Positions 4,546 to 39,285 of a DNA stretch of 64,000 bases are shown here, one piece after another. A model generated the notes under the pieces. It ran no database searches and was not told where the DNA came from. It saw nothing but the letters and a program-made list of their open reading frames with translations. The translations under genes and the position numbers were made by a program. The DNA comes from a virus. The stretch lies in IMG/VR virus record IMGVR_UViG_3300027754_003462. One strand, written 5' to 3'. Every line of letters begins with the position of its first letter. Position 1 is the stretch's first letter.

Positions 4546-4597
4546 ATTGTAGCAAAATGGGAATTATTGGTCAATTACACAAAAAGTATTACTTTTT
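4546..4597 (-). promoter_or_regulatory. Early sigma70 promoter with upstream palindrome
   Basis: TTGACC-17 nt-TACAAT; AAAAAGTAATACTTTTT palindrome at 4581-4597. Confidence 0.88.
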
Positions 4598-5321
4598 ACT
4601 GCCACAGTTGTTGTATCACAGGGTCATGCACTTGAGCAGGTTTGGGGTTGCCGTGGAACACAACCACACTGGTGCCGGGTTGAATTCGAACCCCGGAGTT
4701 GGGCTTGAGGTGTTTTCTTTTTGCAAAATCATAGCCGCCATCCAGGCACTGCCAGCGATAACTTTCAAAACGAAAGTCATCAAAGAAACGTCGTTGATTC
4801 ACATCAAGTGCCGCACCTATGTAGTCTTGATCTCCGGGATAACTTTTGATTGTGGCTTTGAAATCAGCCTGTGAGAACCGATCCCATATCCAGGCAAAAC
4901 GATCAACATTGAACCACATCATGCTGGAGTTCATGGTCACTGTGTCACGACGCTGTAGGTATCTGAAGTCTCTGATGGTCCAGAGATAATCTGTAGTGTG
5001 CTCAGGTATCCAATCTAGTGAGTCGGCAATTACCACATCCAGGTCAAGATACAACATATTTCCTGCAAAGTGAGCAGGATTAAACAACTGCATTTTGTAC
5101 CACCATGACCTTTTGGGCCCAGATATGCCCCAGTCTTCCAGGATATGTTTGACCATGTGTGGAGGTACTGATCTGTCATGTTCTGTGTACACATGCAAAC
5201 GAACTTCTGCAGTCAGATGCCGGCACAGCATGTTGTACAATCGTTCTACATATTGCCAGTCATATCCCGATCCGTGTATGACGCAGGCACAGTCAATGCG
5301 TCCAGGGTTCTTTTTTGACAT
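4596..5321 (-). CDS. GT-A fold glycosyltransferase (GT8-like)
   Basis: WWYK, YLDLD (DxD), NSS, GDQD and FHGNPKP motifs. Confidence 0.8.
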   Translation of the reverse strand: MSKKNPGRIDCACVIHGSGYDWQYVERLYNMLCRHLTAEVRLHVYTEHDRSVPPHMVKHILEDWGISGPKRSWWYKMQLFNPAHFAGNMLYLDLDVVIADSLDWIPEHTTDYLWTIRDFRYLQRRDTVTMNSSMMWFNVDRFAWIWDRFSQADFKATIKSYPGDQDYIGAALDVNQRRFFDDFRFESYRWQCLDGGYDFAKRKHLKPNSGVRIQPGTSVVVFHGNPKPAQVHDPVIQQLWQ

Positions 5322-5956
5322 CAGAATTGAAAAATAATTTGGTATTCGTCCAAGATGGGGAAATGGCCTTGAGACTCAAGATACTCAACTACGGCTCGAC
5401 CTTTTCCGGTACGCTGATTGTTGTTGACCCAACGCGAGTTGTCATCTATGGCCACTACTGCACCTGCACGAATAAATGGTTCGATAATTTCAAATTCTTT
5501 TAAATGATGATCAGCACTTGCAGTATCGTTATTCCAATCCACATCATAACTGTCCAAGTAAAACAAATCCACTTGATCCAAATCAGTTAACGATTCAAGC
5601 CAGGCCACGCTGTCGCTGTGTGTGACTGAGAACTTGTGGCTGGTGATAGTGTTTCTTGCGGCTTCGCAGGCCACTGAATCTATGTCTACACTGCGCATTT
5701 GGCCACCATAAAGATCCACAAACTCTGTAAACAGTCTGGCACTCTGCCCGTCCATCCAGTTGCCCGGGGTTCTCAGTGTGCCTGTTTCAATAATATTAAA
5801 GTTGCTTTGTTTTTGATTCAACAACAATCTAAAAATAACATCAAATCCCACGGCTCTGTTGTAAAGGCCGTCGGCAAGAATTCCCCGGACTCCATCGAAT
5901 TGGATATTTAATAAAGGATAGTAAATTCGTCTGTAGTGATCAAGCCAGGTATTCAT
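5321..5956 (-). CDS. Class I SAM-dependent methyltransferase
   Basis: IIETGT, SVDID, FYLDS, VAIDD and GKG motifs. Confidence 0.75.
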   Translation of the reverse strand: MNTWLDHYRRIYYPLLNIQFDGVRGILADGLYNRAVGFDVIFRLLLNQKQSNFNIIETGTLRTPGNWMDGQSARLFTEFVDLYGGQMRSVDIDSVACEAARNTITSHKFSVTHSDSVAWLESLTDLDQVDLFYLDSYDVDWNNDTASADHHLKEFEIIEPFIRAGAVVAIDDNSRWVNNNQRTGKGRAVVEYLESQGHFPILDEYQIIFQF

Positions 5957-6807
5957 ACGCTTCTTTCTAGTGCTGGTGCCACTCTACTTATCCAGGTGCC
6001 TCGGCGTAGTTCATCTAAAGTATATTCAGTATGACAAATCTGTGCAAGCCACAACTCCCGGTCTCGAGTGTATGGTTGCTCAATGTCTCCAAACCCAACG
6101 CCCACGGGGTATGCCAAACTGGTTGTTTCTACAATGGGCCGCACTCCAGCAATTGCGGCTTGTGTACCTGGGCCCGAATTGTAGTTTACCAAGGCATGAC
6201 AATCATAATGTATGTCATAACTGTCATAGGTATTGGGCAATCGGTTGGGTATTTCTACTGTTACTCCTGGGGGTAAATTGTCGAATGCTACCTTGCATCG
6301 CGGATGTGGCCTCACAGTGATAGGGCGGTCTGTTGAATTCTTCAAGATGTTTAGTGTGCTGTGCAACCAGCCTGTCATGTCCAGGCCAGTTACTTGTAAA
6401 CTACGATTGTGTTGCAAAGCCACAACAATGTTGGGGTTGGATGCAAATTGTGTGGCCAGGCTGATGCGTAATTTTTTAGGCCTGTCCCAATCCAGATTAT
6501 CTACATGTCCATAATAGCCGTCGGCCGTGATATTGTTCACTGCTATCTTCCAGGTATTGCCCCGATACAATGCGCCAATTTCAATTATGATCACTGGCCG
6601 GCCTTGTGATCTATAGTGTTCATACACTGCTTGATTGGCACTCATTCGTCCTGCCCACAGCACTGACCAAATGATAGCCGCATCGCTTGTCATTGAATTT
6701 TCTTGTGTTTGGATGCCACGGGCTTGCAAGCAATCCAATACTGCACTCATAACTGGCTGTGCATTTTTTGCACATTGCAAAGGATAATAGGCTACGTTTT
6801 TGATCAT
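5953..6807 (-). CDS. Putative glycosyltransferase, capsule-biosynthesis (KpsS/KpsC-like) family, paralog 1
   Basis: VVALQ, VRPHP, HALVNYNS...AAIAGVRP. Start moved to MIKNVAYY because the longer ORF overlaps the divergent gene. Confidence 0.6.
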   Translation of the reverse strand: MIKNVAYYPLQCAKNAQPVMSAVLDCLQARGIQTQENSMTSDAAIIWSVLWAGRMSANQAVYEHYRSQGRPVIIIEIGALYRGNTWKIAVNNITADGYYGHVDNLDWDRPKKLRISLATQFASNPNIVVALQHNRSLQVTGLDMTGWLHSTLNILKNSTDRPITVRPHPRCKVAFDNLPPGVTVEIPNRLPNTYDSYDIHYDCHALVNYNSGPGTQAAIAGVRPIVETTSLAYPVGVGFGDIEQPYTRDRELWLAQICHTEYTLDELRRGTWISRVAPALERSV

Positions 6808-6819
6808 AAGTAATTTTTG

Positions 6820-7620
6820 ATGAAGTACACAGTAATTACCACATTCAACGAGTCCGGTTACAAGAAATACGGACAACGCATGATCCAAACCTTTTTGCAG
6901 ACATGGCCAAGCGAAGTTACGCTGGTGATTTATGCAGAAGGTTGTGCGGTAGCAGAAACGGCATCCAATCTTGTGGTTCATGATATTACCATAGCAGATG
7001 CATTGACCACATTCAAAACTGCCTGGGCCGGTGTGCCACGGGCCAATGGAGATGTCAGTGGCGACCCTGTTCGTAGCAAAAGAAAAGATTCCGGTAAAGG
7101 ATTCAAGTGGGACGCCGTGCGTTTTGCTCACAAAGTGTACTCAATATTCCACTGTGCGAGATCTATCGCAACTGATTGGTTGATATGGATGGATGGCGAT
7201 ACTGTGTGCCATAGCACCATTACCTTAGCAGACCTAGCACGTCTGTGCCCAACTGACCGAGACTTATGCTTTTTAGGGCGTCAAGGCAAGTACTCTGAAT
7301 GTGGGTTGTATGCTATGAATCTAATGCGTCCGGGTACAAAAACGTTCTTGCAAAAGTTTCAACGCATGTACGATGATGCTGAACAGGGAATATTCACACT
7401 CAAAGAGTGGCACGATAGTTATGTGTTTGATGATGTACGAAAGCAATGTGTACTAAATGAACTGGATTGGTCCGGTCATTTGATCACCGGTGAAGGCCAT
7501 CCCTTGATCAATTGTGAATGGGGTGCGTACTTGGATCATCTCAAAGGTGCTCGTAAAGATCTAAAACGTAGCAAACAAGCAGACTTAAAAGTTCCGCGCA
7601 CAGAAGCGTATTGGCAATGA
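6820..7620 (+). CDS. GT-A fold glycosyltransferase
   Basis: RFAHKV, WMDGD (DxD), ECG, EWHDS, HLKG. Confidence 0.72.
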   Translation: MKYTVITTFNESGYKKYGQRMIQTFLQTWPSEVTLVIYAEGCAVAETASNLVVHDITIADALTTFKTAWAGVPRANGDVSGDPVRSKRKDSGKGFKWDAVRFAHKVYSIFHCARSIATDWLIWMDGDTVCHSTITLADLARLCPTDRDLCFLGRQGKYSECGLYAMNLMRPGTKTFLQKFQRMYDDAEQGIFTLKEWHDSYVFDDVRKQCVLNELDWSGHLITGEGHPLINCEWGAYLDHLKGARKDLKRSKQADLKVPRTEAYWQ

Positions 7621-8420
7621 CCTGGATATTCTTGAACAAAAACAACGCTGACGAATACATTGAAATGTTTGCGGCTGGGTCTCAAACTGTGCCCACTTGT
7701 TTGGAAACATGGCGTTATGAAGACAGTGATGCTCCGCTAGTACTACGTGGTATCATGAAACACAAGATTATCCGACGCTGTTGGGCAGACCGACGTGATT
7801 TTTACTACATGGATTCGGGTTATCTAGGCAACAGGCCCAGCATGGCTAACCCTAATGGTTGGAAGTTTTATCACAGAATTGTGCCCAATGATCTACAACA
7901 TGGTGCGGTGATTGATAGACCCCCAGATAGATTGCAAAGATTAAACGTCAAGATCCGTCCCAGACAGAATCACTGCAGAGATATACTAATAGTTGCTCCA
8001 GACGAAAAGCCTTGTACATTTTACGGTATTACCTTAGACGAATGGTTAAAGACCACAACGGATACTATCCGGCAATATACCGATCGTCCCATACGCATGA
8101 GAGAACGCCCTGCTTCAAGATGGGATCGCAAAACACAACGACCTGAAGAATGGCTCAACGATGTACATGCCATAGTTACATTCAATTCAACAGCCGCAAC
8201 AGAAGCAGTGCTGGCTGGCGTGCCTACTTTCGTCACAGCACCTGCCAATGCCGCTAGACCTGTGAGCAATACAGATTTAAGTACAATAGAAACACCCTGG
8301 TTCCCGGACAGTGATCAGGTATATAAGTGGGCTTGCCACTTGGCGTATGGACAGTTCCATACTACAGAACTGGCCAATGGCACCGCTGCCGCAATACTCA
8401 AGGAGACTCAACATGCGTGA
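7617..8420 (+). CDS. Putative glycosyltransferase, KpsS/KpsC-like paralog 2
   Basis: YYMDSGY, HAIVTFNS...AVLAGVP, LAYGQF; clearly paralogous to 13141-14142. Confidence 0.6.
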   Translation: MTWIFLNKNNADEYIEMFAAGSQTVPTCLETWRYEDSDAPLVLRGIMKHKIIRRCWADRRDFYYMDSGYLGNRPSMANPNGWKFYHRIVPNDLQHGAVIDRPPDRLQRLNVKIRPRQNHCRDILIVAPDEKPCTFYGITLDEWLKTTTDTIRQYTDRPIRMRERPASRWDRKTQRPEEWLNDVHAIVTFNSTAATEAVLAGVPTFVTAPANAARPVSNTDLSTIETPWFPDSDQVYKWACHLAYGQFHTTELANGTAAAILKETQHA

Positions 8421-9063
8421 ACACTATGGATGGCAATTTCCCGACTTTGAAACACACCTGCCACGGATGATTAAGAAAAGCGTGGACAAAGGCTTGCCGC
8501 CCGAATATCAAATTGCCGTACGACGTCGCAGTATTGAGTTATGTAAAAAACGAGATGTAGCATTGGATATTGGTGCCAACGTGGGATTATGGTCACGTGA
8601 TCTTGTGAAAAGTTTTGGCCGTGTGATAGCATTTGAACCTGTTGGCATATTTAGAGAATGCCTGGAACGCAATGTCGTAGGCGATAACTTTGAAGTGCGT
8701 CCCATTGCGCTGGGCGATCAGGATACGCAGGGCACAATGATCATTACCGAAGACAATTCTGGACATAGTCATCTTGATCCTGCTTCTATGGGCACAGGCG
8801 ATGTACAAGTTGTTCGTCTTGACAACTTGAACTTTCACGACATAAGTTATATCAAAATTGACTGCGAAGGCTATGAGTATCGCATACTGCAAGGTGCCGA
8901 ACAAACCATTCGACGTTGCAGACCCATTGTGGTGATAGAGCAAAAACCACATGATGCTTACAGCAAACAATACGGGCAGTTTGCGGCGGTTGGCTTGCTG
9001 GAAGATTGGGGCATGGTAAAACTAGATCAAGTACGTGATGATTGGATCATGGGGTGGCAATAA
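8413..9063 (+). CDS. FkbM-family methyltransferase
   Basis: ALDIGANVG, AFEP, IKIDCEGYE; start MREHYGW follows AGGAG. Confidence 0.9.
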   Translation: MREHYGWQFPDFETHLPRMIKKSVDKGLPPEYQIAVRRRSIELCKKRDVALDIGANVGLWSRDLVKSFGRVIAFEPVGIFRECLERNVVGDNFEVRPIALGDQDTQGTMIITEDNSGHSHLDPASMGTGDVQVVRLDNLNFHDISYIKIDCEGYEYRILQGAEQTIRRCRPIVVIEQKPHDAYSKQYGQFAAVGLLEDWGMVKLDQVRDDWIMGWQ

Positions 9064-9710
9064 CTGCATTTGATCTAGTGGAAATTAAAGAAGGATGGTA
9101 TTGGCCAAAAGATGATACCAATACCTTGAGATTTCTACTAGAAAATTTTGATTTACCTGATAAAATATCCAGTTATGTTAATAACAAAAAAGTTGTAGTG
9201 CAAGCTGGTGGCAATTGCGGTATATACCCAAAACAATATTCAAAAATTTTTGATGCTGTTTATACGTTTGAACCAGACTGGCTGAATTTTTATTGTTTAG
9301 TAATGAATTGCCCTGAAGAAAATATTATTAAATCTCAAGGATGTCTCGGTAGTGATCCTGGATTGGTAAATCTTCATATCAAATCTAAGAGCAGGGGAAA
9401 AAGTTTTATTAACGGCGTTGGTTTCTATCCGATTTATCTAATAGACAATTTAGGATTAACAGCATGTGACTTAATACACTTGGACATAGAAGGCTATGAA
9501 TATTTTGCTCTTAGCGGTGCTGTGTCTACTATCAATAAATTCAAACCAGTTATAGCCATTGAAATGTGGGATCCGCCTCCAAAAAAATATCTAAATAGAT
9601 TTGGGGACAACATCAATCAAAAAACCAAAGACCTACTGACATCATTGGGTTACACACATGTTAACACCCTGAACGAATCTGACTGGATATACACATGCGA
9701 ACAAAAATAA
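9042..9710 (+). CDS. FkbM-family methyltransferase
   Basis: VQAGGNCG, TFEPD, IHLDIEGYE; true start may be the GTG at 9054. Confidence 0.87.
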   Translation: MDHGVAITAFDLVEIKEGWYWPKDDTNTLRFLLENFDLPDKISSYVNNKKVVVQAGGNCGIYPKQYSKIFDAVYTFEPDWLNFYCLVMNCPEENIIKSQGCLGSDPGLVNLHIKSKSRGKSFINGVGFYPIYLIDNLGLTACDLIHLDIEGYEYFALSGAVSTINKFKPVIAIEMWDPPPKKYLNRFGDNINQKTKDLLTSLGYTHVNTLNESDWIYTCEQK

Positions 9711-10381
9711 TAGTGTTACAAAATAATGATCTGTCTCAAACAGTGGCACAAGATTGCATAGAACAGGCTAGAAAATTTGGAATCCACGCCGAAGTATTTG
9801 ACGCTATAAACGGATTTGATGCGGCTGCGCATCTAGAATTATTAAACATAAATCCACTGGGAAAATTTAAAAAAGGAAGAGTTGGAATAGTTGGGTGTTT
9901 GCTAAGTCATTATTATTTGTGGCTTGATTGTATCAAAGACAATGTTCCTTATCTTGTGCTAGAGCATGATGGATATTTTATCAAGCCATTGCCAGACAAT
10001 ATTTTAGATTCATTTGATGATGTTATCAAATTAGATTCTGGTAACCCTTACAGCGATTCTTATGAACACTGGTTAACAACCCACGAGAATGATACTTCGT
10101 CAACTTACATCATTGAAGATCGCGAAGGTGGCGGGGGAAATCGTGAAACTGCCGCTGGCTGGAATAGCATGGGTGCCTATGCATATATTATCAAACCGCA
10201 TGCGGCAGAAAAACTAGTTGGTTGGGTCAAAGCCAATGGGTTCCTTCCAACTGATTGGCTAATAGGTACAAAAATTGTTAATATAACCCACTACCGGCCT
10301 ACTATTGCAAGATTACACCCACTGTATGCAACAGATGGTAATATTAAAAAATTGTCTACCACAATGAATTTGGAGAAATAA
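9695..10381 (+). CDS. GT25 (LPS biosynthesis-type) glycosyltransferase
   Basis: FDAING, GCLLSH..LW, VLEHDG, GAYAYII...AAEKL. Confidence 0.8.
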   Translation: MRTKIIVLQNNDLSQTVAQDCIEQARKFGIHAEVFDAINGFDAAAHLELLNINPLGKFKKGRVGIVGCLLSHYYLWLDCIKDNVPYLVLEHDGYFIKPLPDNILDSFDDVIKLDSGNPYSDSYEHWLTTHENDTSSTYIIEDREGGGGNRETAAGWNSMGAYAYIIKPHAAEKLVGWVKANGFLPTDWLIGTKIVNITHYRPTIARLHPLYATDGNIKKLSTTMNLEK

Positions 10382-10382
10382 C

Positions 10383-11006
10383 ATGAATAACGAACAAGAT
10401 AAAAGTGCCGAGGATTCTGCTACCTGGGCTCGTAAATGGACCAAAGAACGATATATAGCCAAGCACCGATCTAGTTGGGAAATAGCAGATGCTTATCTCA
10501 ATCAACCCATAGGAAGATTGTTGGATATTGGATGTGGCTTTGCCTGGGAAAGCCGCTGGTTCAATGAAAAGTATGGCACAGAACTTTGGTTGTTGGATGG
10601 AGACTCTAGTACCAATGCTACCAAGCCCGAAACTGCCAGTTACGGTAACTGGAATACAGACTCTAGTGAACTAAAATTTTATCACACCTTTGATTTCTTG
10701 GATTCTAAATTAAAAGAACTAGGTACAAAAAATTACCATCTAGTAGACGCTAATAATATCAACATACCCGATGATGTTAAATTTGATGTTATCACATCGT
10801 GGCTCAGTTGCGGTCATCACTATCCGGTAAAGACCTATATAGATCTCATGCGTCAACACTCGCATGAACATACTAGAATTATTTTAGACATCAGATGCAA
10901 GGGCACAGCCACAAACTACATTGGCGTAGATGGATTTGAAGTTGTGAATGTTGTGAGTAATGCAGGCGGCAAAAAACGTGCTACCGTGGAGATAAAGTTG
11001 TTATGA
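10383..11006 (+). CDS. Class I SAM-dependent methyltransferase
   Basis: LLDIGCG, FDVITSWLSCGHHYP. Confidence 0.8.
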   Translation: MNNEQDKSAEDSATWARKWTKERYIAKHRSSWEIADAYLNQPIGRLLDIGCGFAWESRWFNEKYGTELWLLDGDSSTNATKPETASYGNWNTDSSELKFYHTFDFLDSKLKELGTKNYHLVDANNINIPDDVKFDVITSWLSCGHHYPVKTYIDLMRQHSHEHTRIILDIRCKGTATNYIGVDGFEVVNVVSNAGGKKRATVEIKLL

Positions 11007-11677
11007 CTAGTGCATACTACGAAGAATCAGTTAGACTGGGTCGTGAGTTCCAGGTCAACAACAAGAGTTGGGCTGGATACGACGTTGTAAAATATCAGAA
11101 GTGTATCAAAGATCTGGTGGATCGCTATGGTGCAAAAACTATACTAGACTACGGATGTGGCAAAGGCCTGCAATACAAAGAGCGACTGCCGTATGGCGGC
11201 GGTGCTGGGATTGAGTTACCTGAAGAAGAATGGAAAACGTTTGATGAATATTTAGGTGTTACAGTTTATTGTTATGATCCTTGCGTGGCAGGCTTTGAAC
11301 AACTGCCGCCTGCGGGTACTAAATTTGATGGGGTTATTTGCACACAGGTGCTGAATAGTATTCCTGACGCAGACATGACTTGGGTACGTGAGCGGCTAGA
11401 ATCTTATGCTGAACAGTTTTGTTTTGTTGGTGTAAACTTCCAACGTGAAGCCAAAGGTAAGAAAAGCATGTACGATCCTGCTCACTTTCCGCTGCCAAGA
11501 ACACGAGAGTTCTTCCGTAGTTACTATCAAGACTGGAACTCCAGTGACTTGTTCTGGTGGTGGAAAGATCGTCCTTACTACGACACCTGGTTGGATGAAC
11601 AATTAAATCAGACCTGGCAAGATGTCCCAGATACCTTCAGCGGTAAGTATGAATACATAGAGGTAAATCACCGATGA
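11003..11677 (+). CDS. Class I SAM-dependent methyltransferase
   Basis: ILDYGCGKG, YDP, FDGVICTQVL. Confidence 0.82.
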   Translation: MTSAYYEESVRLGREFQVNNKSWAGYDVVKYQKCIKDLVDRYGAKTILDYGCGKGLQYKERLPYGGGAGIELPEEEWKTFDEYLGVTVYCYDPCVAGFEQLPPAGTKFDGVICTQVLNSIPDADMTWVRERLESYAEQFCFVGVNFQREAKGKKSMYDPAHFPLPRTREFFRSYYQDWNSSDLFWWWKDRPYYDTWLDEQLNQTWQDVPDTFSGKYEYIEVNHR

Positions 11678-12231
11678 TAATAGATCCTGAATATCAAGCA
11701 CAATTGGCTACCATGCACAGCCAAGGTCAATTTGTTAGAGGTGGTAAAACTTTAAAAAGTGTACGACCGTTCTTGGAAAAATATCAACCTACTAGTGTGT
11801 TAGACTTTGGATGTGGCCACGGTGCGCTGATGGCCAGCATACAACAAAAATACCCCAATATGCGTGTGGAAGGTTATGACCCAGGAAATCCTGACCATAA
11901 TCGAGTTCCCAAACGTTCATTCGATGCTGTGGTCAGTGCAGATGTATTTGAGCACATTGAACCCAGCCACCTGGCTGAAACATTACGCATGATCAGCGAC
12001 AAGATGATTGTTGCTGGATGGTTCAGAATTGCCTGCTATCCTGCAAAGAAACACCTGCCTGATGGTCGTAACGCTCACTTGATTGTGGAGTCCCCTGCAT
12101 GGTGGCGGGAACAACTGCTGGCCAACATGGATATCACCATTGTGTCAGAAGCGATCTCTGTAGTTGACAAAAGTCAAAAGTGGCCCGATGTTGTGGGACA
12201 CAACTATGATGTTGTGGTAGAGGTCAAGTAG
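11674..12231 (+). CDS. Class I SAM-dependent methyltransferase
   Basis: VLDFGCGHG, YDPG, DVFEHIEP, LPDGRNAHLI. Confidence 0.85.
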   Translation: MIIDPEYQAQLATMHSQGQFVRGGKTLKSVRPFLEKYQPTSVLDFGCGHGALMASIQQKYPNMRVEGYDPGNPDHNRVPKRSFDAVVSADVFEHIEPSHLAETLRMISDKMIVAGWFRIACYPAKKHLPDGRNAHLIVESPAWWREQLLANMDITIVSEAISVVDKSQKWPDVVGHNYDVVVEVK

Positions 12232-13148
12232 GGCAGGAACTTTTGCCAGATGCGTCCTGCCTGTGCATCTGCGTCTGACCAGTGTGCGGCGGCTAGGTCA
12301 TGCAACCATTGCTCTCGAGCAAATACAGCAGGTGATTCAATTTGAGCAATATCTTGATTGGCCACCGCCCAGGCTACACAACTTGAATCATCCGCAAACA
12401 CAGGTATGCCAGCACACACAGCCGCTACACTGGCACTGCTGTTGAAGAATACTGCGGCATGAGCACCGTTTAGATTGTCTGTCAACTGCGTAATTGCAGG
12501 ATCCGCTATCATGATGCTGGTATCGTTATTGAGTTGTCTTTTGTTCCACTTGTGAAAATCTTCAGATCTATAATCTCCTGGGTGAGGACGTATCATGATC
12601 TGGCGTTGGGTATGTTGTCGAATTTGTCTAATTTTTCCATTAAGCCATGTCATGGGATCCAATGCTTTCATGCTAAAGCCGCCATCACGTTGCATACAAA
12701 TCAAAACATGACCCTGAAGATTTGATTGTGGAGATTTTAATTCAATATGTAATGCTTGTCGGATTTCGTCCCACTTACTTGAGTCGCTGTTATGATTGGC
12801 GTATTCAGCACGATCATAGAACGGTCCATTCAAACTGTAGCGTAGATACCTACTGCCGTCATCCGTATACTTCCAACAACTAGCATCAATACACATGGTA
12901 TCGAGTCCACGTCTACGTTGTTCTGCTATGATTTCTTTGCGTAAGGTTATGTTACGTCCACCGGTGTTGGTGGTTGCCCAGCCCAACATCACTGCCAGAC
13001 GACTGGGTGTGTAAACATAATCTCGTTCAACACGCACTAGGCCTCCTGAACTGGCCACCCCTGTGGCAAAACTTTCAAGACATTGAGTTTTGCGTGTGTG
13101 CTTTTTAACATTGGCCACACTGGAAACATAAACCACACAATCAAGCAT
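12204..13148 (-). CDS. Putative glycosyltransferase, KpsS/KpsC-like paralog 3
   Basis: LICMQRD, IRPHPG, HAAVFFNSS...AVCAGIPVF. Confidence 0.6.
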   Translation of the reverse strand: MLDCVVYVSSVANVKKHTRKTQCLESFATGVASSGGLVRVERDYVYTPSRLAVMLGWATTNTGGRNITLRKEIIAEQRRRGLDTMCIDASCWKYTDDGSRYLRYSLNGPFYDRAEYANHNSDSSKWDEIRQALHIELKSPQSNLQGHVLICMQRDGGFSMKALDPMTWLNGKIRQIRQHTQRQIMIRPHPGDYRSEDFHKWNKRQLNNDTSIMIADPAITQLTDNLNGAHAAVFFNSSASVAAVCAGIPVFADDSSCVAWAVANQDIAQIESPAVFAREQWLHDLAAAHWSDADAQAGRIWQKFLPYLTSTTTS

Positions 13149-14142
13149 TGTTTAATATGCGCCAGGCTGTGCCATCACGCATGTCCACTTCTGTAAATTG
13201 ACAATATGCCATGTGTCGTGCCCAGGCTTCCACTTCCTCTAGGCTGGGTCGGCGCGGGTTTTCTATTTCAGCAAGACTTTGACTACACAACGGTCCGGCC
13301 GCATTTGGACCCAGTGTGATTGCTGGTTTACCATGTAGCAAGGCTTCGCCTGCGGCAATACTGGAGAATGTGACCAAGCAATGCACATCACGATCCAAGG
13401 CCATCTCTATTGTGTCATCAAAAATTCTGGCACTACGACCCTGTTTGGTTCTTACAACAACAGGTCTGTCTGAGTACTTTTTGATTTCTTGTTGTACAGT
13501 CTCCAACCAATCGTCAAGTATGATATCGTAGTTGTTCAGTAACTTTTGACTGGGCGGTGCCAAAAGAATATTTGTGCCCGGGCGCATTTTTTTTGGTCTT
13601 GCATTGGTTTTTTCTAGTCTGTCCCAGGGACGTTCTACAATATCACCAAACCATTGCACATCATTTTTGGTAATTCTGTGATACAGTTTTCTTTTACCGT
13701 TACCAAAGTAGCCAGTGTCAATATAGTAGAAATCTCTTCCTGAGGCGCGGCAGGCATCCATTTGTTTGCGTTTGGTGATGCCACGCAACACCACAGCAGT
13801 TTCTGTGTGTTCTTCTCGGGCCCAGGTGCTGATTTGACCCCCGGCACCTTGTACAAAACTGCTTAGTATGGGATCGTACATATGACCTTTTCTTTCGTAT
13901 CTGTATTCGCTGTCGGTGCTCACTATGTTGTTGACCGGTAGCGCCGCCAATTGTTCACTCAACGTTTGGAGTGTGATACCGTAAGTGGATCCTGCTGGAT
14001 CCACTCGATACTTTAGTATGTTATCAAATATTTCCCGTATCTCAGGAACCACTTGATCTAACACATGCGGTTCGGGCGGAGCAGGAGGTTCTGGCGGCGG
14101 AGGCGGAATATATGATGATTCGTCTTCCTGTTCCCAGATCAT
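13141..14142 (-). CDS. Putative glycosyltransferase, KpsS/KpsC-like paralog 4, with Pro-rich N-terminal extension
   Basis: YYIDTGY, HCLVTFSS...ALLHGKP, MAYCQF; start MIWEQ overlaps the upstream stop (ATGA). Confidence 0.6.
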   Translation of the reverse strand: MIWEQEDESSYIPPPPPEPPAPPEPHVLDQVVPEIREIFDNILKYRVDPAGSTYGITLQTLSEQLAALPVNNIVSTDSEYRYERKGHMYDPILSSFVQGAGGQISTWAREEHTETAVVLRGITKRKQMDACRASGRDFYYIDTGYFGNGKRKLYHRITKNDVQWFGDIVERPWDRLEKTNARPKKMRPGTNILLAPPSQKLLNNYDIILDDWLETVQQEIKKYSDRPVVVRTKQGRSARIFDDTIEMALDRDVHCLVTFSSIAAGEALLHGKPAITLGPNAAGPLCSQSLAEIENPRRPSLEEVEAWARHMAYCQFTEVDMRDGTAWRILNNA

Positions 14143-14828
14143 TCTATTGACCTTTGCTGGCAATATTCAGTTAGTATGCGTTCTCTGTGCCATTCACTAC
14201 CCATGGGAGTGTCAGCAAACTCGTGAAAGCATGGAGTGCCCAGGGTGTAATGCAACAACTTGGCCGCGGGATTAGGCCCGTATTCATCGGGTAACCAGTT
14301 CCATTCTGGCGGCAATTCACCAATGCGAGTATCATCCAACCACGAGAAGCGGTGGAGTTCACTACCTGTGGATCGTTGCACAAACTCAGGAGAAAGTTTA
14401 CGATTGGGAAAACTATTACAATTCCACAAAATAACACTAGACCAATTTTTTCTAGGATAGTCTTCATTTTTAGAACCTAGGTATTTCACAGGCATGCGAG
14501 TCTTGTAGACATGCTTGACCACTTGCACGTCTTTGGTAACATCTTTCATAGCCCAAAGTTCTGCAACATCACCACGCACAATCATGTCACCGTCAATGAA
14601 GATAGCCGAACCCGAAAATCCCATCAAGTACGGCACCAAAAATCTTGTGTAGATAAAGTGATTGCTACCGTCAGTGTGTGTTTCCGAATAGTCCCGGAAC
14701 AGATTCAGTGCTACAGGCACAATACTCACAGGTCTGCTTGCGTGTCTAATAATGCTGTTGACACAGGTGTGATATGCTATGGCCTCACGCGGATCATAGC
14801 CAATAAAGATTGGTATAATGTCTTTCAT
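14139..14828 (-). CDS. GT-A fold glycosyltransferase
   Basis: FIGYDPRE, TRFLVP, FIDGD (DxD), YPRKNWSS, LHYTLGTP. Confidence 0.8.
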   Translation of the reverse strand: MKDIIPIFIGYDPREAIAYHTCVNSIIRHASRPVSIVPVALNLFRDYSETHTDGSNHFIYTRFLVPYLMGFSGSAIFIDGDMIVRGDVAELWAMKDVTKDVQVVKHVYKTRMPVKYLGSKNEDYPRKNWSSVILWNCNSFPNRKLSPEFVQRSTGSELHRFSWLDDTRIGELPPEWNWLPDEYGPNPAAKLLHYTLGTPCFHEFADTPMGSEWHRERILTEYCQQRSIE

Positions 14829-15580
14829 CTGCGCTCGATATCCTCTTCTACACAATTCTCACCGTATTGTATTTCAATTAGTTTGAGTGGTTGGTCAGTT
14901 TCGTTGCACAACATGTGCCATTGATTTTTAGCAATCCAAATATATTCGTGCGGTCCATATGTACCTACCAAGTCGTGATCGCTTGAACTGTCTAGTGTGT
15001 AAACTGCGGCTTCACCTTGGGCCACAAACCAAAACTCTGCACGTTGATCGTGACGTTGCATACTCAAACATGTTTTGGGTGCCACAGTAAGTTCTTTGAG
15101 TTTGGTATGTGTGCCTACTTCGTGTAACACACGATAGTAACCCCAGGCACGTGATGTTTTGGGAGTTTTCCACTCCTCTAATATCCAGGAACTAGAATTG
15201 GCTTTGTCTTCCCCTCCGACCCCAAACACAAATTCCACATCATCAAATACCTGTTCTGGAATGTTTTTGGATGTACGGTCTCCGCCGTTGGCAAACACAA
15301 TTTCATCGTTGGGATATTTTTCCTTGACCTTGCGGATAGCATCAATGCTGGATCCGTCATCGTCGTTGAATTCGATTACTTCCCCAACCATGTGTAGATT
15401 GTCCAACACAATCATGCGTTCGCGCCAGGGCATGAATGGGCGGCCTTTTTTGCGTGTGAGCCACGCATCAGAGTTTAGGCCCACAACCACGTGATCACCC
15501 AGGTGATCAGCATGATTTAGGTAAGAGATATGCCCGGAATGCAGAGGATCAAAGCCACCAGTTACTATGACGATTTTCAT
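14825..15580 (-). CDS. HxGH nucleotidyltransferase (TagD/RfaE domain II-like) fused to a mannose-6-phosphate isomerase-type cupin
   Basis: TGGFDPLHSGH, GLNSD, FANGGDR; C-terminal RAWG...LSMQRH..RAEFW...EIQYG...EEDIER. Confidence 0.85.
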   Translation of the reverse strand: MKIVIVTGGFDPLHSGHISYLNHADHLGDHVVVGLNSDAWLTRKKGRPFMPWRERMIVLDNLHMVGEVIEFNDDDGSSIDAIRKVKEKYPNDEIVFANGGDRTSKNIPEQVFDDVEFVFGVGGEDKANSSSWILEEWKTPKTSRAWGYYRVLHEVGTHTKLKELTVAPKTCLSMQRHDQRAEFWFVAQGEAAVYTLDSSSDHDLVGTYGPHEYIWIAKNQWHMLCNETDQPLKLIEIQYGENCVEEDIERR

Positions 15581-15585
15581 GCAGG

Positions 15586-15591
15586 TATTTA
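15586..15591 (-). promoter_or_regulatory. Putative late promoter core (TAAATA) for the leftward glycan operon
   Basis: TAAATA 5 nt before the ATG; the same hexamer precedes many structural genes in this window. Confidence 0.65.
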
Positions 15592-17357: not shown

Positions 17358-18134
17358 TTACTCCAATGTAATAAAATTATTTTCTATCAGTGAATTCTTA
17401 TAGAACAATTGCCTGTATTGTAACAGATTTTCATCTAGTTTGTCAAAGTTTGCCAGTGGCATTTGGCTACCCACACAGGGCAAACCATGTTGATCACACC
17501 ATGTTTGATATTGTGTTGGCGGTGCCCATGTTTCGGGTCGTGCTACATTCAATTGCAATGTTGTGTATAATTCCGAAAAGTCATTCAAATCAGTATCCAC
17601 AATTGAGTCGTTGTTTTGCCATTTTTGCCAAGTAGATCTACCAAGATTGTTGTAGGCAATAGATATATTGTAAACTCCGAATCCCAATGCCCTTGTACCA
17701 AAACGGTTGGACATTGTGTAATTGGGATCTGGAGTGACTGCTTTGAAATTCAAAGTAGACTCCTCAATAGCATGTATCAATTTATTGATTGCCTCTAGAT
17801 CTCCCGGCAACACATGATCTGCTACAGTAGCAATATTAGGAAAACGTTGATGAAGTTTGACCCACAGTCTGTGTAGATGATTGAGATCATCTTGATTGCC
17901 TGGGTCAAGCTCCATATCAAAATCTGTCAAATGCAATCGATTGTGAACAAAAGATTGTATGCGATCAAAACGTTGTTGTAATTCTTGACTCAGAGAAGCA
18001 TACCCTAGGTCCGACACTGTGTATTGATTTAGAGCACGAGAATTAAGTTGCTCTACAAAATATTCGTAAACACTGTGATCGATAACCGCAAGTTCTATAA
18101 CATCATGAGTTTGAGTCCAGCGCAGTTTTGGCAT
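17358..18134 (-). CDS. Hypothetical protein between gp32 and uvsX
   Basis: Long ORF filling the gap; LNHLHRLW...INKLIHAIE; start uncertain. Confidence 0.7.
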   Translation of the reverse strand: MPKLRWTQTHDVIELAVIDHSVYEYFVEQLNSRALNQYTVSDLGYASLSQELQQRFDRIQSFVHNRLHLTDFDMELDPGNQDDLNHLHRLWVKLHQRFPNIATVADHVLPGDLEAINKLIHAIEESTLNFKAVTPDPNYTMSNRFGTRALGFGVYNISIAYNNLGRSTWQKWQNNDSIVDTDLNDFSELYTTLQLNVARPETWAPPTQYQTWCDQHGLPCVGSQMPLANFDKLDENLLQYRQLFYKNSLIENNFITLE

Positions 18135-23763: not shown

Positions 23764-24514
23764 CCAATATTCTTTCTGCAAACATTTTGTGTCCTTGTGG
23801 GCCAGCATGCATGTAATCTCTGGCATACTCTACTTCTTCTCGACTGCGAGCAAAATAATCGTGTGCGTCGTAGGTCAAACAGGGTATTCCTAAATTTTGA
23901 CAAAGAGCCTGAACTGCCAATTTGTTCTTTGCGTTATTTAAGTCTTGATTACCTTCATTTGTCATCCAGTGCTTGAGAATCACATCAGCACCGAACTCAC
24001 CGTCAGTGGTATTGGGCATCATTGTATGCATTTCAGGTTTGCCTGTTGCTCTAATAATATCAAATCTGTTTTTAGGTGGAGCGGCCATGACAACCAACTC
24101 CGGGCGTAACACTGGCAACCAGAACTTTGCCAACATAAAACAAGTGTCTGCGCTGGTACCGCCCCAGGCCAAGTTGTATGATGTCATGTTGAGTTCATTG
24201 CCCAATATGGTCGGCCAGATTGTGTCAAGTGGCAGTCCAATGCCCACTGTGTAACTACAGCCCAGTGCAACCACCGACTTGACTCCAAACTCAAATTCTT
24301 GGCATCTGAATCCATACTTGTTTATCTTGTATGTGATTGCATTGGGCTTGTCCCAACCTTTGGCCTGAAAATATTCACGGTGTGCAGGATCTTGTATCAT
24401 GCGCTCGTAACTTTCTTTAGTGTCTGTTGGCAGCCAATCTAGTGTTCGTCCGGCACATGATATCCCCGGGTGCCACGGTGGTGCCAATGGCAGTGAATCT
24501 TTAAACGAATCCAT
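23738..24514 (-). CDS. SGNH-hydrolase-like protein
   Basis: LGCSYTVG, NLAWGG, ARDYMHAG (DxxH). Confidence 0.65.
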   Translation of the reverse strand: MDSFKDSLPLAPPWHPGISCAGRTLDWLPTDTKESYERMIQDPAHREYFQAKGWDKPNAITYKINKYGFRCQEFEFGVKSVVALGCSYTVGIGLPLDTIWPTILGNELNMTSYNLAWGGTSADTCFMLAKFWLPVLRPELVVMAAPPKNRFDIIRATGKPEMHTMMPNTTDGEFGADVILKHWMTNEGNQDLNNAKNKLAVQALCQNLGIPCLTYDAHDYFARSREEVEYARDYMHAGPQGHKMFAERILDDWRKKYA

Positions 24515-25658
24515 GTTTGATTCCTTCTGCAAGTTCTGACCATAGGTCAACAAAATGCGTTGTTTTGTTTAGTTCAGTTTCTATTTTTTGATGAAACTTC
24601 AACACCTCAGGTTTATACTTGTTGATATCTTTGACATAAGTGTTATCCTGTAACTGCTTGCGATAGTTTTGTAGCGTGTGTATTCCTAAATTAATGTGGT
24701 GGCCCCAGCGTTCTGTCACTTGATCAATTTGAGACATTGCCTGCAATCGCAGTTGTTCAGGCAGTCGTCTTGCATCTAGATCATAAGGATGCATGAGTTC
24801 GCACCAGTAAATTTCTAAAGATCGGGCTGTACAGAATTCATAATATGAAATCAAATCAAATGCATTGTATATGCTGTAGGCCGGGTGTGCTTTGATTGTT
24901 TGTGAATCTTGATTCATAGTGTCAAGGTTGGCAGTTAGTGTTGTCCATTGTGCTCCGTTGCGAACATATTCAAACTTGTCAGCCTCAACATTGTCAAAAC
25001 TCACCATCCACTCCACACGTGGCCAAGTCTTGAGTTTTTGGTATATAGGGTTTGTGACAATGTTCACACTGAGATTGGTTGTGACCATGACATTGACTTT
25101 GTTGGGATCAAGGTGATCTAAAAAATCAGCCAGGCCTTTTTGCAATAGTGGTTCTCCGCCACCTAGACTGAGTCCGTGTATGTTATGGCCTTGTGTTTTT
25201 GCAAGTGCAATCAAGTCCTCATGCTCATTTTTAACATGATTGATAGGTATTTTCTTGACGCTTTGCCAGGCTGTGCTGGTTTCAGGATTACAATACACAC
25301 AAGATAAGTTACACAAATTACTCCAGTTGACCACAAGATGTTGTAATTCAAAAAAATCTAAATCTTTGTCAATCTCTGTTAGTGTACTTTGGTCAGCATG
25401 GCGCACCGTCCTGCCACTTGAACCTGTTGTTTCTTCAAGACTTTTGCACCAACTGCATCCTGGGTGCCATTCACCACGAGCCATGGTTTCTCTCATGCTT
25501 GTTAATATAGGGCCTCGAATGATGTTTTGTATTGTGTCTTTTTTGTTGTTTCCCACCATCTCTACACAATGGAAACAAGGACTAACATGCCCGGATTGAT
25601 CAATGTTCAAACTGGTCCAAGGCGCTGAGCAAAATGTAGGGCTGTCAGTTATTTGCAT
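24501..25658 (-). CDS. Radical SAM protein with N-terminal Twitch/SPASM-like domain
   Basis: FCSAPW...PC...CSWC; CNLSCVYC; GGEPL. Confidence 0.9.
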   Translation of the reverse strand: MQITDSPTFCSAPWTSLNIDQSGHVSPCFHCVEMVGNNKKDTIQNIIRGPILTSMRETMARGEWHPGCSWCKSLEETTGSSGRTVRHADQSTLTEIDKDLDFFELQHLVVNWSNLCNLSCVYCNPETSTAWQSVKKIPINHVKNEHEDLIALAKTQGHNIHGLSLGGGEPLLQKGLADFLDHLDPNKVNVMVTTNLSVNIVTNPIYQKLKTWPRVEWMVSFDNVEADKFEYVRNGAQWTTLTANLDTMNQDSQTIKAHPAYSIYNAFDLISYYEFCTARSLEIYWCELMHPYDLDARRLPEQLRLQAMSQIDQVTERWGHHINLGIHTLQNYRKQLQDNTYVKDINKYKPEVLKFHQKIETELNKTTHFVDLWSELAEGIKHGFV

Positions 25659-26788
25659 AGGAATTCCAATTCTGGCCATAGTCGTACAAAATCTCCCGAT
25701 TTGTCTGGATGGAACACAGTTTCGTTGTCATGAATATGTTTACGAAAGTTTTGTTGTATCTCAGGATTGGGCTCTGATTGACTGTACTTGTCTCTTGCTT
25801 GATCAAAGAACTGTCGCTCTGCTGGGGTAGCAATGTCCATCTCATAGAATCGATCGATTTCCCGGCTGGCCAACTCAGCCACTTCGGGTCCATGTTGGAA
25901 CGGATCAAGATAATCTGGTTGGAATAAATTTTGCCACAGCACTGTGGTGCCAGTATCTTGGGCAAACTGCCTAAACTCACAAAGTCGTGTGGCACTGTAA
26001 ATATTGTATACAGCGTGTATGCCGCCCCAATGGCCATTGTTCTTCATGAGATATTTAACTGTTTGTATATTGTGTTGCAACAACTTCCAGTCAGCACCGT
26101 GACGTACATATTCTAGTCTATCACCCGTGTTGTCAAAACTCATGGACCAGCCTACATTACGTCTCTGGGTAAGTTTTTTAAATATTTTATTTTTTTCCAG
26201 ATCAACATTCATATTTGTGATCAGTGTTACTATGGCACTTTCAGGAATGACATCTAGCAAGCGTTCGTTTTCGGGCAATAATAATGGTTCGCCTCCGACC
26301 AAGGCCACTTCGTGTATGTGTTCATGATGTTGCTCAAGAAAGTCACACACTTGTTCATAGTAGGGTCTTGTGCCTGATCGGAATGGCACGTTTTTTATAC
26401 TAGCCCATTTACTAGAACAACCGGGCCCACAGTAGTTACAACTCAAGTTACAGGTTGTGTTCCAACGCACATCAAATATCACAGGATAGTGATATCGGTC
26501 ACCTGCTAGGGCATAATCAAAGTTGGGATTCACACGGTTGTGCCAGGCACGTTCCGAGTCTGCGCCAAAGCGTTCGGCTTTTACACAATTACTGCAATAC
26601 TCATGCGGCTGACCTTGTGCTAGGCTGGCACGTATTTCTGCCATTAAATCAGTGTTTAAGATTTCTTCAATGGTGTTGGCATTGAGGTTACCCAACATGT
26701 TGGGATTGCCTGCGCAACAGGTTTTGACATTGCCTTGGGGATTGATGTGCAGGCCACGCCAGGGTGCCGCACAGTAGAAATTGCTCAT
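25649..26788 (-). CDS. Radical SAM protein with N-terminal Twitch/SPASM-like domain
   Basis: YCAAPW...TCC...CSNC; CNLSCNYC; GGEPL. Confidence 0.9.
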   Translation of the reverse strand: MSNFYCAAPWRGLHINPQGNVKTCCAGNPNMLGNLNANTIEEILNTDLMAEIRASLAQGQPHEYCSNCVKAERFGADSERAWHNRVNPNFDYALAGDRYHYPVIFDVRWNTTCNLSCNYCGPGCSSKWASIKNVPFRSGTRPYYEQVCDFLEQHHEHIHEVALVGGEPLLLPENERLLDVIPESAIVTLITNMNVDLEKNKIFKKLTQRRNVGWSMSFDNTGDRLEYVRHGADWKLLQHNIQTVKYLMKNNGHWGGIHAVYNIYSATRLCEFRQFAQDTGTTVLWQNLFQPDYLDPFQHGPEVAELASREIDRFYEMDIATPAERQFFDQARDKYSQSEPNPEIQQNFRKHIHDNETVFHPDKSGDFVRLWPELEFLCK

Positions 26789-33910: not shown

Positions 33911-35038
33911 TCACTTTGGAGTAGGATAATACATACCACTGGCTCGTCCAGGAATCTGTCGCATGGCAGCTGGTACTGCTCCTTTGACCACATTTGTTCC
34001 CAGAGCCACTGCTTCGTTGACAGCAATACTCTTGAGATTTTTACCTTTAAACGTATTGTAGGTTGTGCCGGCTTTTTGTATAGCACCAATGATGCCCAAT
34101 GGTCCACCACTTTGTAAGTCTTCTATGATACCTCCTGCGGCATCCAACAGGCCACCTTGTCCCATGAAGTTGGCACGACTGCCCGGACGACTGATTGGAC
34201 TCAGTGTTTGATCATAGTGAGAGGGATCAGCAAAGCCTTTGATATTCTGATCTGGCCTACCTTTGCCAATGGCCCCTGCATAGTATTTCACAGTTTCATA
34301 AGCAATGGTCATGCTGTTCTGCATGGTGCCAGCACCTTCTGCATAGGAGTACTGATCATGTGAGTAATTGGTGATTAGTGGATTGACCAACACATAAGTT
34401 GCTGTTTTGTGTTGATCCATGCCAGTGATCTGAATATCAAGAAAGAACGGAGCCTTGCCCGAAGGACCTGATGTACCATCATTGTAGGCTTCACCAATAT
34501 AGCCCCAGTCGTTGACATTGCCCACACGTTGGTTGGCATAGATGTCACGAATATTGTATCCAAATCCTGTGACTTTATTGGCGCTTTCACCAAGGCTGCC
34601 GTTGTTGCCATTTTCCAATACTTCATTGTAACTTTGGCTGGCATCTTTGTAGTAGTAGTTGTAGTAGGCGTACCACATCTTGCGCACATTGTCCCCAGCA
34701 TCATCGTGAAATACCACAGTGACAGGATCATAATTGATCTTGGTCTGTACCACACGCTTGCGATTGTATTGATTGAGAGTTTCGTTGGCAATTGTGAACT
34801 TGGGCAAGTCCACAGTCTTTACCACATAACTCAATGATGAATTGCCTTGCACTCCAAGATAGGCAGCCAGGCCAGGAACACCTGCAAAGTTAAGAGTAAA
34901 ACTAACGTGGAAAAGGAACTTGTACCGAGGTTTAAGTTCAAATGAGTTGGGAGTAAACACCTTGCTTGCGTGAGTGTAATCACGCAAGGCATTGACTTCA
35001 GTAAATCCTTGAAAGAATTGTTGACCAAATGTTGGCAT
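33911..35038 (-). CDS. Tail-tube-fold protein (gp19/gp54-like baseplate-tube junction)
   Basis: VKTVDLPKF...NQYNRKR...YDPVTVVFHDD...YY; adjacent to the tube gene. Confidence 0.75.
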   Translation of the reverse strand: MPTFGQQFFQGFTEVNALRDYTHASKVFTPNSFELKPRYKFLFHVSFTLNFAGVPGLAAYLGVQGNSSLSYVVKTVDLPKFTIANETLNQYNRKRVVQTKINYDPVTVVFHDDAGDNVRKMWYAYYNYYYKDASQSYNEVLENGNNGSLGESANKVTGFGYNIRDIYANQRVGNVNDWGYIGEAYNDGTSGPSGKAPFFLDIQITGMDQHKTATYVLVNPLITNYSHDQYSYAEGAGTMQNSMTIAYETVKYYAGAIGKGRPDQNIKGFADPSHYDQTLSPISRPGSRANFMGQGGLLDAAGGIIEDLQSGGPLGIIGAIQKAGTTYNTFKGKNLKSIAVNEAVALGTNVVKGAVPAAMRQIPGRASGMYYPTPK

Positions 35039-39190: not shown

Positions 39191-39285
39191 AATGGTTTCC
39201 TTTTCAAGTTGTAGATATTTATTGGCAAACGCCAAAAACACCCAGTTTGAACAACCTACATGTAGGTTCGTGTGCTAAATACCCC

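Follow-up and report, generated by a model that had tools for sequence, protein, structure and literature searches.

Viral glycosylation systems and the glycan island

In mycobacteriophages Che8, Corndog and Myrna, in chlorovirus PBCV-1 and in the fibrils of mimivirus, virion proteins of the capsid or tail are decorated within the cytoplasm by soluble viral glycosyltransferases, with no host export machinery. The glycans of chlorovirus capsids contain O-methylated sugars, and in the chloroviruses methyltransferases act alongside the viral glycosyltransferases. The passage of PMC12619734 that cites Freeman 2023 attributes the virion glycans of mycobacteriophages to viral enzymes; the 'moraphage' of PMC12619734 belongs to a different, Bacteroidota-linked lineage. 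Here these systems serve as the model for an island of 15 genes (g01 to g15) found in a 64-kb stretch (64,000 nucleotides; the window) of the IMG/VR virus record IMGVR_UViG_3300027754_003462. The island encodes four GT-A-type glycosyltransferases, four paralogous GT-B-type glycosyltransferases that resemble KpsC, six S-adenosylmethionine (SAM) methyltransferases, two of which are FkbM proteins, and one cytidylyltransferase-cupin fusion. Our preferred reading, which is held tentatively, is that the island is a conserved glycan-assembly line, self-contained and cytoplasmic, in which a methylated sugar chain is built on one or more virion proteins, with methyltransferases and glycosyltransferases acting together as in the chloroviruses.

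Large glycan clusters are also known from other aquatic phages. The cyanomyoviruses S-SSM7, P-SSM2 and S-SM2 carry large lipopolysaccharide ('LPS') clusters whose function is unexplained (PMC3037559), and S-SCSM2R carries 22 cell-wall synthesis and modification genes, with 13 glycosyltransferases, plus KdsA and KdsB (PMC12801897). Like the island, these clusters occur in big aquatic T4-like phages and combine many glycosyltransferases with sugar-nucleotide genes. They are, however, hypervariable cargo located near tRNAs, whereas the island is a core, syntenic and methyltransferase-rich locus that is fixed beside uvsY and built around pairs of KpsC-like paralogs. A preliminary description of this DNA had considered a pathway of this size unusual for a bacteriophage, which is overstated; clusters of 22 or more genes have been published (PMC3037559, PMC12801897) and the size of the island alone is therefore not exceptional. 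What sets this core, syntenic and methyltransferase-rich island apart is its foundation on a KpsC-like GT-B family that has two subtypes and is without the nucleophile of the 3-deoxy-D-manno-oct-2-ulosonic acid (Kdo) transferases. No paper describing such an island was found, and literature searches on phage Kdo transferases and on jumbo-phage FkbM proteins yielded nothing relevant, while a search on phiCbK glycosylation yielded nothing on virion glycans.

The source of the window is an uncultured aquatic jumbo myovirus. This assignment is based on the T4-type neighbours of the island (helicase, AAA ATPase, UvsY, UvsX, gp32-like single-stranded DNA-binding protein (SSB), terminase, tail sheath and tail tube), on the terminase, which shares 52% identity with that of the Pseudomonas jumbo phage PA5oct and is matched by those of Atu_ph07 and GAP32 as well, and on the lack of a near-identical phage record, as a megablast search with the island as query gave zero matches among 50,697 phage records. 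Relatives are abundant in IMG/VR, where 190 loci were found, including contigs of up to 331 kb. One of them, IMGVR_UViG_3300023174_000039 (G001; 331 kb, 95% complete and syntenic with the window), was used for the genome-wide searches, such that the searches for DNA-base enzymes and for gp55 refer to this relative and not to the window phage's own genome.

The 15 open reading frames (ORFs) are all present and contiguous, as had been described, and occupy positions 4596-15580 almost without spacers. They form three arms. The outer two, g03-g02-g01 and g15-g14-g13-g12, are encoded by the minus strand, and the middle one, g04 to g11, by the plus strand. The start sites were corrected to 15580 for g15, 6807 for g03 and probably 8413 for g06. 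The convergent genes g11 (plus) and g12 (minus) share a 28-nt overlap at their 3' ends (12204-12231), and no terminator-like hairpin is present between the two operons.

Fold and active-site residues of the KpsC-like proteins

The four GT-B paralogs, encoded by g03 (5953-6807, minus), g05 (7611-8420, plus), g12 (12204-13148, minus) and g13 (13141-14163, minus), match one another in BLASTP searches with E values of 4e-12 to 2e-51. A model of g05 was generated with AlphaFold2 (AF2) from 95 diverse homologues and has a predicted local distance difference test (pLDDT) score of 95.7. The top 22 Foldseek matches of this model are all KpsC, WbbB or KrkA, as are the top 15 VIA matches (Z of 9.3-12.4 over 212-236 aligned residues, with KpsC at 12.4); other GT-B folds have a VIA Z of 8.9 or less, and the T4 beta-glucosyltransferase is not among the top structural matches. 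The predicted fold of the paralogs is closest to that of the retaining beta-Kdo transferases KpsC, WbbB and KrkA.

The likeness to these enzymes extends beyond the fold. KpsC/KpsS (GT107), WbbB (GT99) and KrkA also occur as multiple paralogs or domains, as in the two-domain KpsC, and share with the g03/g12 subtype the C-terminal-domain motifs (K/R)-x-H-P and N-S...E-A...G-x-P. A profile of the family gives a weak match to WbbB (E 0.016) over the R-x-HP ... NS..EA..G-P region, and its sole match in the chromosome of E. coli CFT073 is KpsS (E 4.4e-4). Unlike the Kdo transferases, to which they are about 10% identical, the paralogs do not keep the nucleophilic Asp, and the g05/g13 half of the family has P...K-P in place of Q...HP. 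Unlike KpsC and KpsS, moreover, they are phage-encoded, predicted to be soluble and unlinked to kps export genes. None of the four matches PF05159 (Capsule_synth) at E 0.1 or better, and a phmmer search of the PDB sequences with g12 alone returned only noise.

The family falls into two subtypes that differ at the same positions, one with an invariant Gln and H-P (41 of 95 homologues; g03 and g12) and the other with P-P-S and K-P (54 of 95; g05 and g13), and the island carries two copies of each. Within the first subtype, g03 has an RPHP motif and g12 has both RPHP and MQRD; both were assigned by paralogy, subtype and profile alignment, in the case of g03 to KpsC. In the second, g13, assigned by paralogy, subtype and its homologues, has a Pro-rich N-terminal extension of about 95 residues.

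In the profile alignments, the nucleophile of E. coli KpsC, D160 in the QTFND loop, is placed opposite Ser in 29 of 41 sequences, opposite Gly in 6 or in a two-residue gap, with a register that is uncertain by one or two residues, and the loop aligned to QTFND has no invariant acidic residue. The catalytic Asp (D160 in KpsC, D232 in WbbB) thus appears not to be conserved in the paralogs, which do not look like true beta-Kdo transferases and are not bona fide members of GT107 or GT99. The name 'KpsS/KpsC-like' used in the preliminary description is right. Since the nucleophile of the nearest structural relatives is missing, the family may use a new glycosyltransferase chemistry.

This family, for which no function has been described, is very large: a threshold of E 0.001 or better gives 4457 representative clusters (50% identity), and g13 alone has 1857 homologues, many of which are 73-89% identical. 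Natural fusions of a GT8 domain to a KpsC-like domain are found in 7 of 150 family representatives; the KpsC-like part matches g13 in six of these and g05 in one. As these fusions mirror the overlapping g14-g13 gene pair, the products of g14 (GT8) and g13 probably act as a unit. KpsC-like domains are also fused to GT4-type domains. Structural relatives of the g05 model in BFVD include proteins of Caulobacter phage CcrColossus and of the giant alga virus TetV-1 (Tetraselmis virus 1). The latter has four proteins with the g05 fold, two of which are annotated as capsule polysaccharide biosynthesis protein. The CMP-Kdo (cytidine monophosphate-Kdo) synthetase family PF02348 is absent from relative G001, and any Kdo used would thus be derived from the host.

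The other enzymes of the island

The assignment of four GT-A/GT25-type glycosyltransferases in the preliminary description is borne out. The product of g14 (14139-14855, minus; likely start ATG at 14828) exceeds the curated Pfam cut-off for GT8 (PF01501, 28.7 bits against 24.3) and has a DGD motif at residue 88, and g08 (9695-10381, plus) is a GT25 member (PF01755, 45.7 bits against 24). The protein encoded by g01 (4596-5321, minus) is of GT-A type with a DLD motif and matches phrog_1962 'glycosyltransferase' (E 1.6e-21). For g04 (6820-7620, plus), which has a DGD motif, the assignment comes from an AF2 model (pLDDT 72), which Foldseek places nearest to the retaining GT-A enzymes alpha-1,3-GalT, glycogenin, LgtC, LARGE1 and GlyE (E about 1e-4); the predicted fold is GT6/GT8-like.

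Six SAM methyltransferases, two of them FkbM, had likewise been proposed and are recovered with Pfam, three of them below threshold. The two FkbM proteins are g06 (8311-9063, plus; PF05050, 70.2 bits against a cut-off of 22.7), whose likely start, ATG at 8413, overlaps the g05 stop codon, and its paralog g07 (9042-9710, plus; 32.7 bits against 22.7; BLASTP against g06, 1.4e-17). The class-I enzymes are g02, g09, g10 and g11, of which g11 alone (11674-12231, plus) passes the Pfam cut-off (Methyltransf_23, 44.4 bits against 27). Both g09 (10383-11006, plus) and g10 (11003-11677, plus) match Methyltransf_23 below threshold (E 4e-5 and 3e-5, respectively), and g02 (5321-5956, minus) is Methyltransf_24-like, with a sub-threshold match to PF13578 (E 2e-4) and a match to phrog_24975 (E 2.9e-41). 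The DPPY motif of DNA methyltransferases is absent from g09 and from the other 14 island proteins.

The nucleotidyltransferase-cupin fusion of the preliminary description is g15 (14825-15580, minus), which joins an RfaE-domain-II-like nucleotidyltransferase (CTP_transf_like, PF01467, 46.7 bits) to a cupin resembling type-II phosphomannose isomerase (PMI; MannoseP_isomer, PF01050, 69.9 bits). It matches TIGR02199 with an E value of 3.7e-21, yet lies far below the cut-off of that model. The whole fusion forms a virus-wide family, and its N-terminal domain is 45-52% identical to the 'TagD-like' cytidylyltransferase of S-SCSM2R, S-SSM7 and P-TIM68. An NCBIfam search gave no match for nine of the ten proteins tried.

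None of the 15 proteins has a hydrophobic segment of transmembrane grade, and all are predicted to be soluble. Pfam searches of the 15 island proteins revealed no initiating phosphoglycosyl transferase, flippase or ABC transporter, polymerase or ligase.

Conservation of the island and homologous modules in cultured phages

Conservation was assessed by tblastn of all the island and flanking proteins against long relatives. The gene order is fixed as ssb-uvsX-uvsY-(g15)-g14-g13-g12-g11...g04-g03-(g02)-g01-small genes-AAA-helicase, and synteny from ssb through uvsX, uvsY and the island to the AAA ATPase and helicase genes is kept in nine relatives, at 57-96% identity. The variable genes are g02 (present in 4 of 14 long relatives), g07 and g08 (1 of 14); g09 and g10 are missing from a few relatives, g15 is absent from three (L007, L064 and L069) and the remaining genes are core, with g01 kept in all the relatives examined. 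Only matches of 26-30% were obtained for g07 in the long relatives, and these are probably cross-hits to their g06 gene.

A sister clade (uvsX about 80% and ssb about 60% identical; contigs L094, L097 and L099, up to 270 kb) has a reduced island at the same site between uvsY and the helicase gene, with a GT8 gene, an FkbM gene, a GT25-like gene and three KpsC-like genes; GGTTAAATACTAC precedes the first gene of this reduced island. The synteny in the relatives together with the reduced island at the same site argues for selection rather than stuffer DNA.

Homologous modules are also found in cultured phages. Pelagibacter phage Mosig has seven homologues in one run, namely those of g01 (29.5% identity), g04 (31.5%) and g14 (43%), two copies related to g06/g07 and two KpsC-like genes. 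Caulobacter phage CcrSC has four genes: one full KpsC-like gene, an adjacent weaker partial match and homologues of g14 and g11, the last in the gp173 region with a product 40.5% identical to that of g11. Further Caulobacter jumbo phages, among them CcrBL9 and CcrColossus, have homologous modules as well. The Mosig and Caulobacter modules are smaller than the island (4-7 genes) and all of their genes are annotated as hypothetical. Their setting is also unlike that of the island: the Mosig module lies among nucleotide-metabolism genes, and the CcrSC cluster lies in the tail-fibre and lysis region, between tail-fibre/tail genes and a lysozyme gene. Because such modules are present in cultured phages (CcrSC, CcrColossus and Mosig), the function is directly testable at the bench.

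Late-type promoter motifs

The exact T4 late promoter sequence TATAAATA has no copy in the 64 kb; the shorter TAAATA and TAAGTA are found in its place. A start codon follows on the same strand at a distance of 6-40 nt in 10 of 29 and 7 of 15 cases, respectively (17 of 44 together), compared with 28 of 636 for the 17 one-base variants (Fisher p 7.6e-11). The genes behind the motif include those for a 931-residue virion protein, several tail-region genes and two giant ORFs. TAAGTA is the form that precedes the giant ORFs (2171 and 1891 residues; 55497 and 62641, minus), and TAAATA precedes most of the smaller tail-region genes.

Two arms of the island begin behind such a motif, as had been reported. 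TAAGTA (6807-6812, plus) is located 7 nt upstream of the g04 ATG, and the element is found at the same position in 14 of 14 relatives, where it switches between TAAGTA and TAAATA. TAAATA (15586-15591, minus) is located 6 nt upstream of the g15 ATG, overlaps the uvsY stop codon and is kept in 10 of 12 relatives. The sister clade lacks g15, and there the element precedes g14, which is the first gene of the arm in that clade. A search with T4 gp55 identified a homologue in relative G001 (E 6.9e-7), and none was found within the 64-kb window. With its enrichment ahead of structural genes and its conservation, TAAATA/TAAGTA is a real promoter-like element of the window phage, and late expression of the island is plausible. 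TAAGTA copies before g02, g06 and g11 were rejected as promoters, being either not conserved in the relatives or reliant on a doubtful start codon. In the Mosig module no pattern of late-type motifs was found.

Promoters of another type are also present, as near-consensus sigma70-like promoters precede the genes for the AAA ATPase, two small proteins and UvsX. The promoter upstream of uvsX (17417-17446, minus) is TTGACA-18-TACAAT with a TG extension. Between 3952 and 4592 on the minus strand, three tandem sigma70-like promoters (TTGAC[AC]-17-TA[TC]AAT with TG) serve two small ORFs and the AAA ATPase gene, and the shared element GTAATACTTTTGCTGTA precedes each of the three.

Candidate acceptors of the glycan

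From the gene content, folds, paralogy, conservation and motif statistics observed, we infer the following timing, donors, product and target. The g15 fusion would activate a sugar phosphate to a nucleoside diphosphate (NDP)-sugar, possibly of heptose type, while the other donors would come from host pools and, in the relative, also from dehydratases and aminotransferases that the phage encodes away from the island. The four GT-A and the four KpsC/WbbB-like GT-B enzymes, the latter as two subtypes of which one would work as a unit with the GT8 enzyme, would then add sugars stepwise, and the six SAM methyltransferases would O-methylate the product. The acceptor would be one or more virion proteins during assembly in the cytoplasm. 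The island encodes no lipid-carrier transferase, no flippase and neither a polymerase nor an exporter, which makes direct assembly of the chain on its final acceptor probable, and because two arms lie behind a late-type promoter element a virion protein is the most likely acceptor.

Further sugar-nucleotide genes are present in relative G001, away from the island at about 201-243 kb (loci L086-L088). They encode three NDP-sugar epimerase/dehydratases, two DegT aminotransferases and a PfkB kinase, whose gene adjoins that of an epimerase; the same region also encodes ThyX and GTP cyclohydrolase I. The PfkB kinase in this relative and the RfaE-domain-II-like g15 together hint at a supply of NDP-heptose, which is to be read as a lead only.

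Several points weigh against a virion acceptor. The preliminary description had placed the glycan on the particle or on the host surface, which is not supported as stated. The genes on either side of the island serve recombination and replication and are not structural. In the mycobacteriophages the glycosyltransferase genes are in the structural module, whereas the island has uvsY on one side and early genes on the other; the position of the CcrSC homologues, which follow tail genes, speaks for a virion acceptor instead. The virion-glycosylating viruses named above also differ in that their enzymes belong to other glycosyltransferase families. With regard to timing, the late-type motif is not confined to structural genes, as it also precedes the radical SAM pair and a nuclease gene; the search for promoters gave none for the g03-g01 arm; and the sigma70-like promoter upstream of uvsX could possibly read through uvsX and uvsY, which would give early expression of g15-g12. 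Finally, GT8, GT25 and Kdo-transferase-like enzymes are builders of the LPS core; they act on the cytoplasmic side of the membrane and can therefore do without an exporter from the phage.

For the last of these reasons a host glycolipid is retained as a possible, although unlikely, target. The enzymes would extend or cap a glycolipid of the host (lipid A-core or a lipid-linked Kdo primer of the KpsS/KpsC type) on the cytoplasmic side of the inner membrane; it would then be exported by MsbA or ABC transporters of the host, and the altered cell surface could, for example, block the adsorption of progeny or competitors. Consistent with this, GT8 and GT25 are classical families of the LPS or lipooligosaccharide core, the GT-B paralogs resemble the Kdo transferases of capsules and O-antigens, with KpsS the sole CFT073 match of the family profile, and methyltransferases of the FkbM/RfbT type cap O-antigens (a weak RfbT match is present in the island). 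Published readings of the cyanophage 'LPS' clusters also favour a change of the host surface (PMC3037559, PMC12801897). However, late-type promoters would leave little time for new LPS to replace the old in a lytic infection, and no membrane anchor, lipid-carrier transferase, ligase or exporter was found in the island. The island is, moreover, core in a T4-like jumbo lineage that looks strictly virulent, and not in temperate phages, which are known for seroconversion. Based on the late timing and the lytic lifestyle, a virion protein is the better guess.

Hypermodified DNA is an improbable target. In this case the transferases would glycosylate a hydroxylated base and the methyltransferases would tailor the glycan, protecting the genome from nucleases. 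The island adjoins uvsX, uvsY and ssb, and late-stage transfer of sugars to DNA is normal (PMC13326640). Phage GT-A (GT8/WaaJ-like) and GT-B enzymes put diverse sugars, including Kdo, on 5-hydroxymethylcytosine (5hmC), and heptose needed a cytidylyltransferase (bioRxiv 10.1101/2023.12.21.572611). The clusters for DNA glycans (Pyle et al. bioRxiv 10.1101/2023.12.21.572611; PMC13326640) are like the island in that they combine multiple glycosyltransferases with nucleotidyltransferases near replication genes, and Kdo and heptose are among their sugars. By contrast, they always include a ThyA homologue or a pair of 5mYOX and a C5-methyltransferase, none of which was found in relative G001; glycosylation of 5-hydroxycytosine (5hoC), as in the arabinosyl-5hoC of RB69/DLP3, needs a ThyA homologue (PMC13326640). 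This relative has ThyX only and no thymidylate-synthase homologue (PF00303), as used in the routes to hydroxymethylcytosine, hydroxymethyluracil and 5hoC, and it has no C5 cytosine methyltransferase (PF00145) and no Tet/JBP dioxygenase (PF12851, in a search that had no positive control). In addition, the GT-B paralogs match KpsC and WbbB, with the T4 beta-glucosyltransferase outside their top matches. The alternative of sugars on the DNA, which the preliminary description had left standing, is thus weakened by the lack of known acceptor-base enzymes in the relative. A 7-deazaguanine route, suggested by FolE and by QueE-like matches of radical SAM proteins, was set aside as G001 has no TGT/DpdA.

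It is equally improbable that the pathway ends in a methylated oligosaccharide or glycoconjugate that is soluble or secreted (as a metabolite or a decoy for defence systems) and sits on no macromolecule of phage or host, or that part of the island is non-functional cargo. In favour of this, g02, g07, g08 and g15 come and go among the relatives. Against it, the core of 11 genes, kept in order and sequence across two clades, and the 4457 clusters of the KpsC-like family both point to a selected function, and we know of no precedent.

If, in accordance with the virion-protein reading, particles are coated with the product, abundant phages of fresh and sea water would join mycobacteriophages and algal viruses in having virions with glycan shielding or glycan-mediated adhesion, and this would affect adsorption, grazing, aggregation and carbon flux. 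A broader and more doubtful proposal is that the KpsC-like proteins are a large, mostly viral and undescribed GT-B family of two co-occurring subtypes, one of them coupled to GT8, which together with GT-A enzymes and methyltransferases would build an LPS-core-like, O-methylated glycan on virion proteins. Among phages of Gram-negative aquatic bacteria, such a virion glycosylation system would be the first, and it would be widespread, with representatives in jumbo phages, pelagiphages, Caulobacter phages and a giant alga virus.

Other features of the window

Three paralogous radical SAM proteins are encoded on the minus strand (1373-2659, 24501-25679 and 25649-26788); they match phrog_14086 and have weak QueE-like matches. 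The last two form the pair upstream of the terminase gene, which begins directly after a TAAATA motif. The tail tube protein (33911-35038, minus; 375 residues) and the tail sheath protein (35762-39241, minus; 1159 residues) are both longer than is usual for their families.

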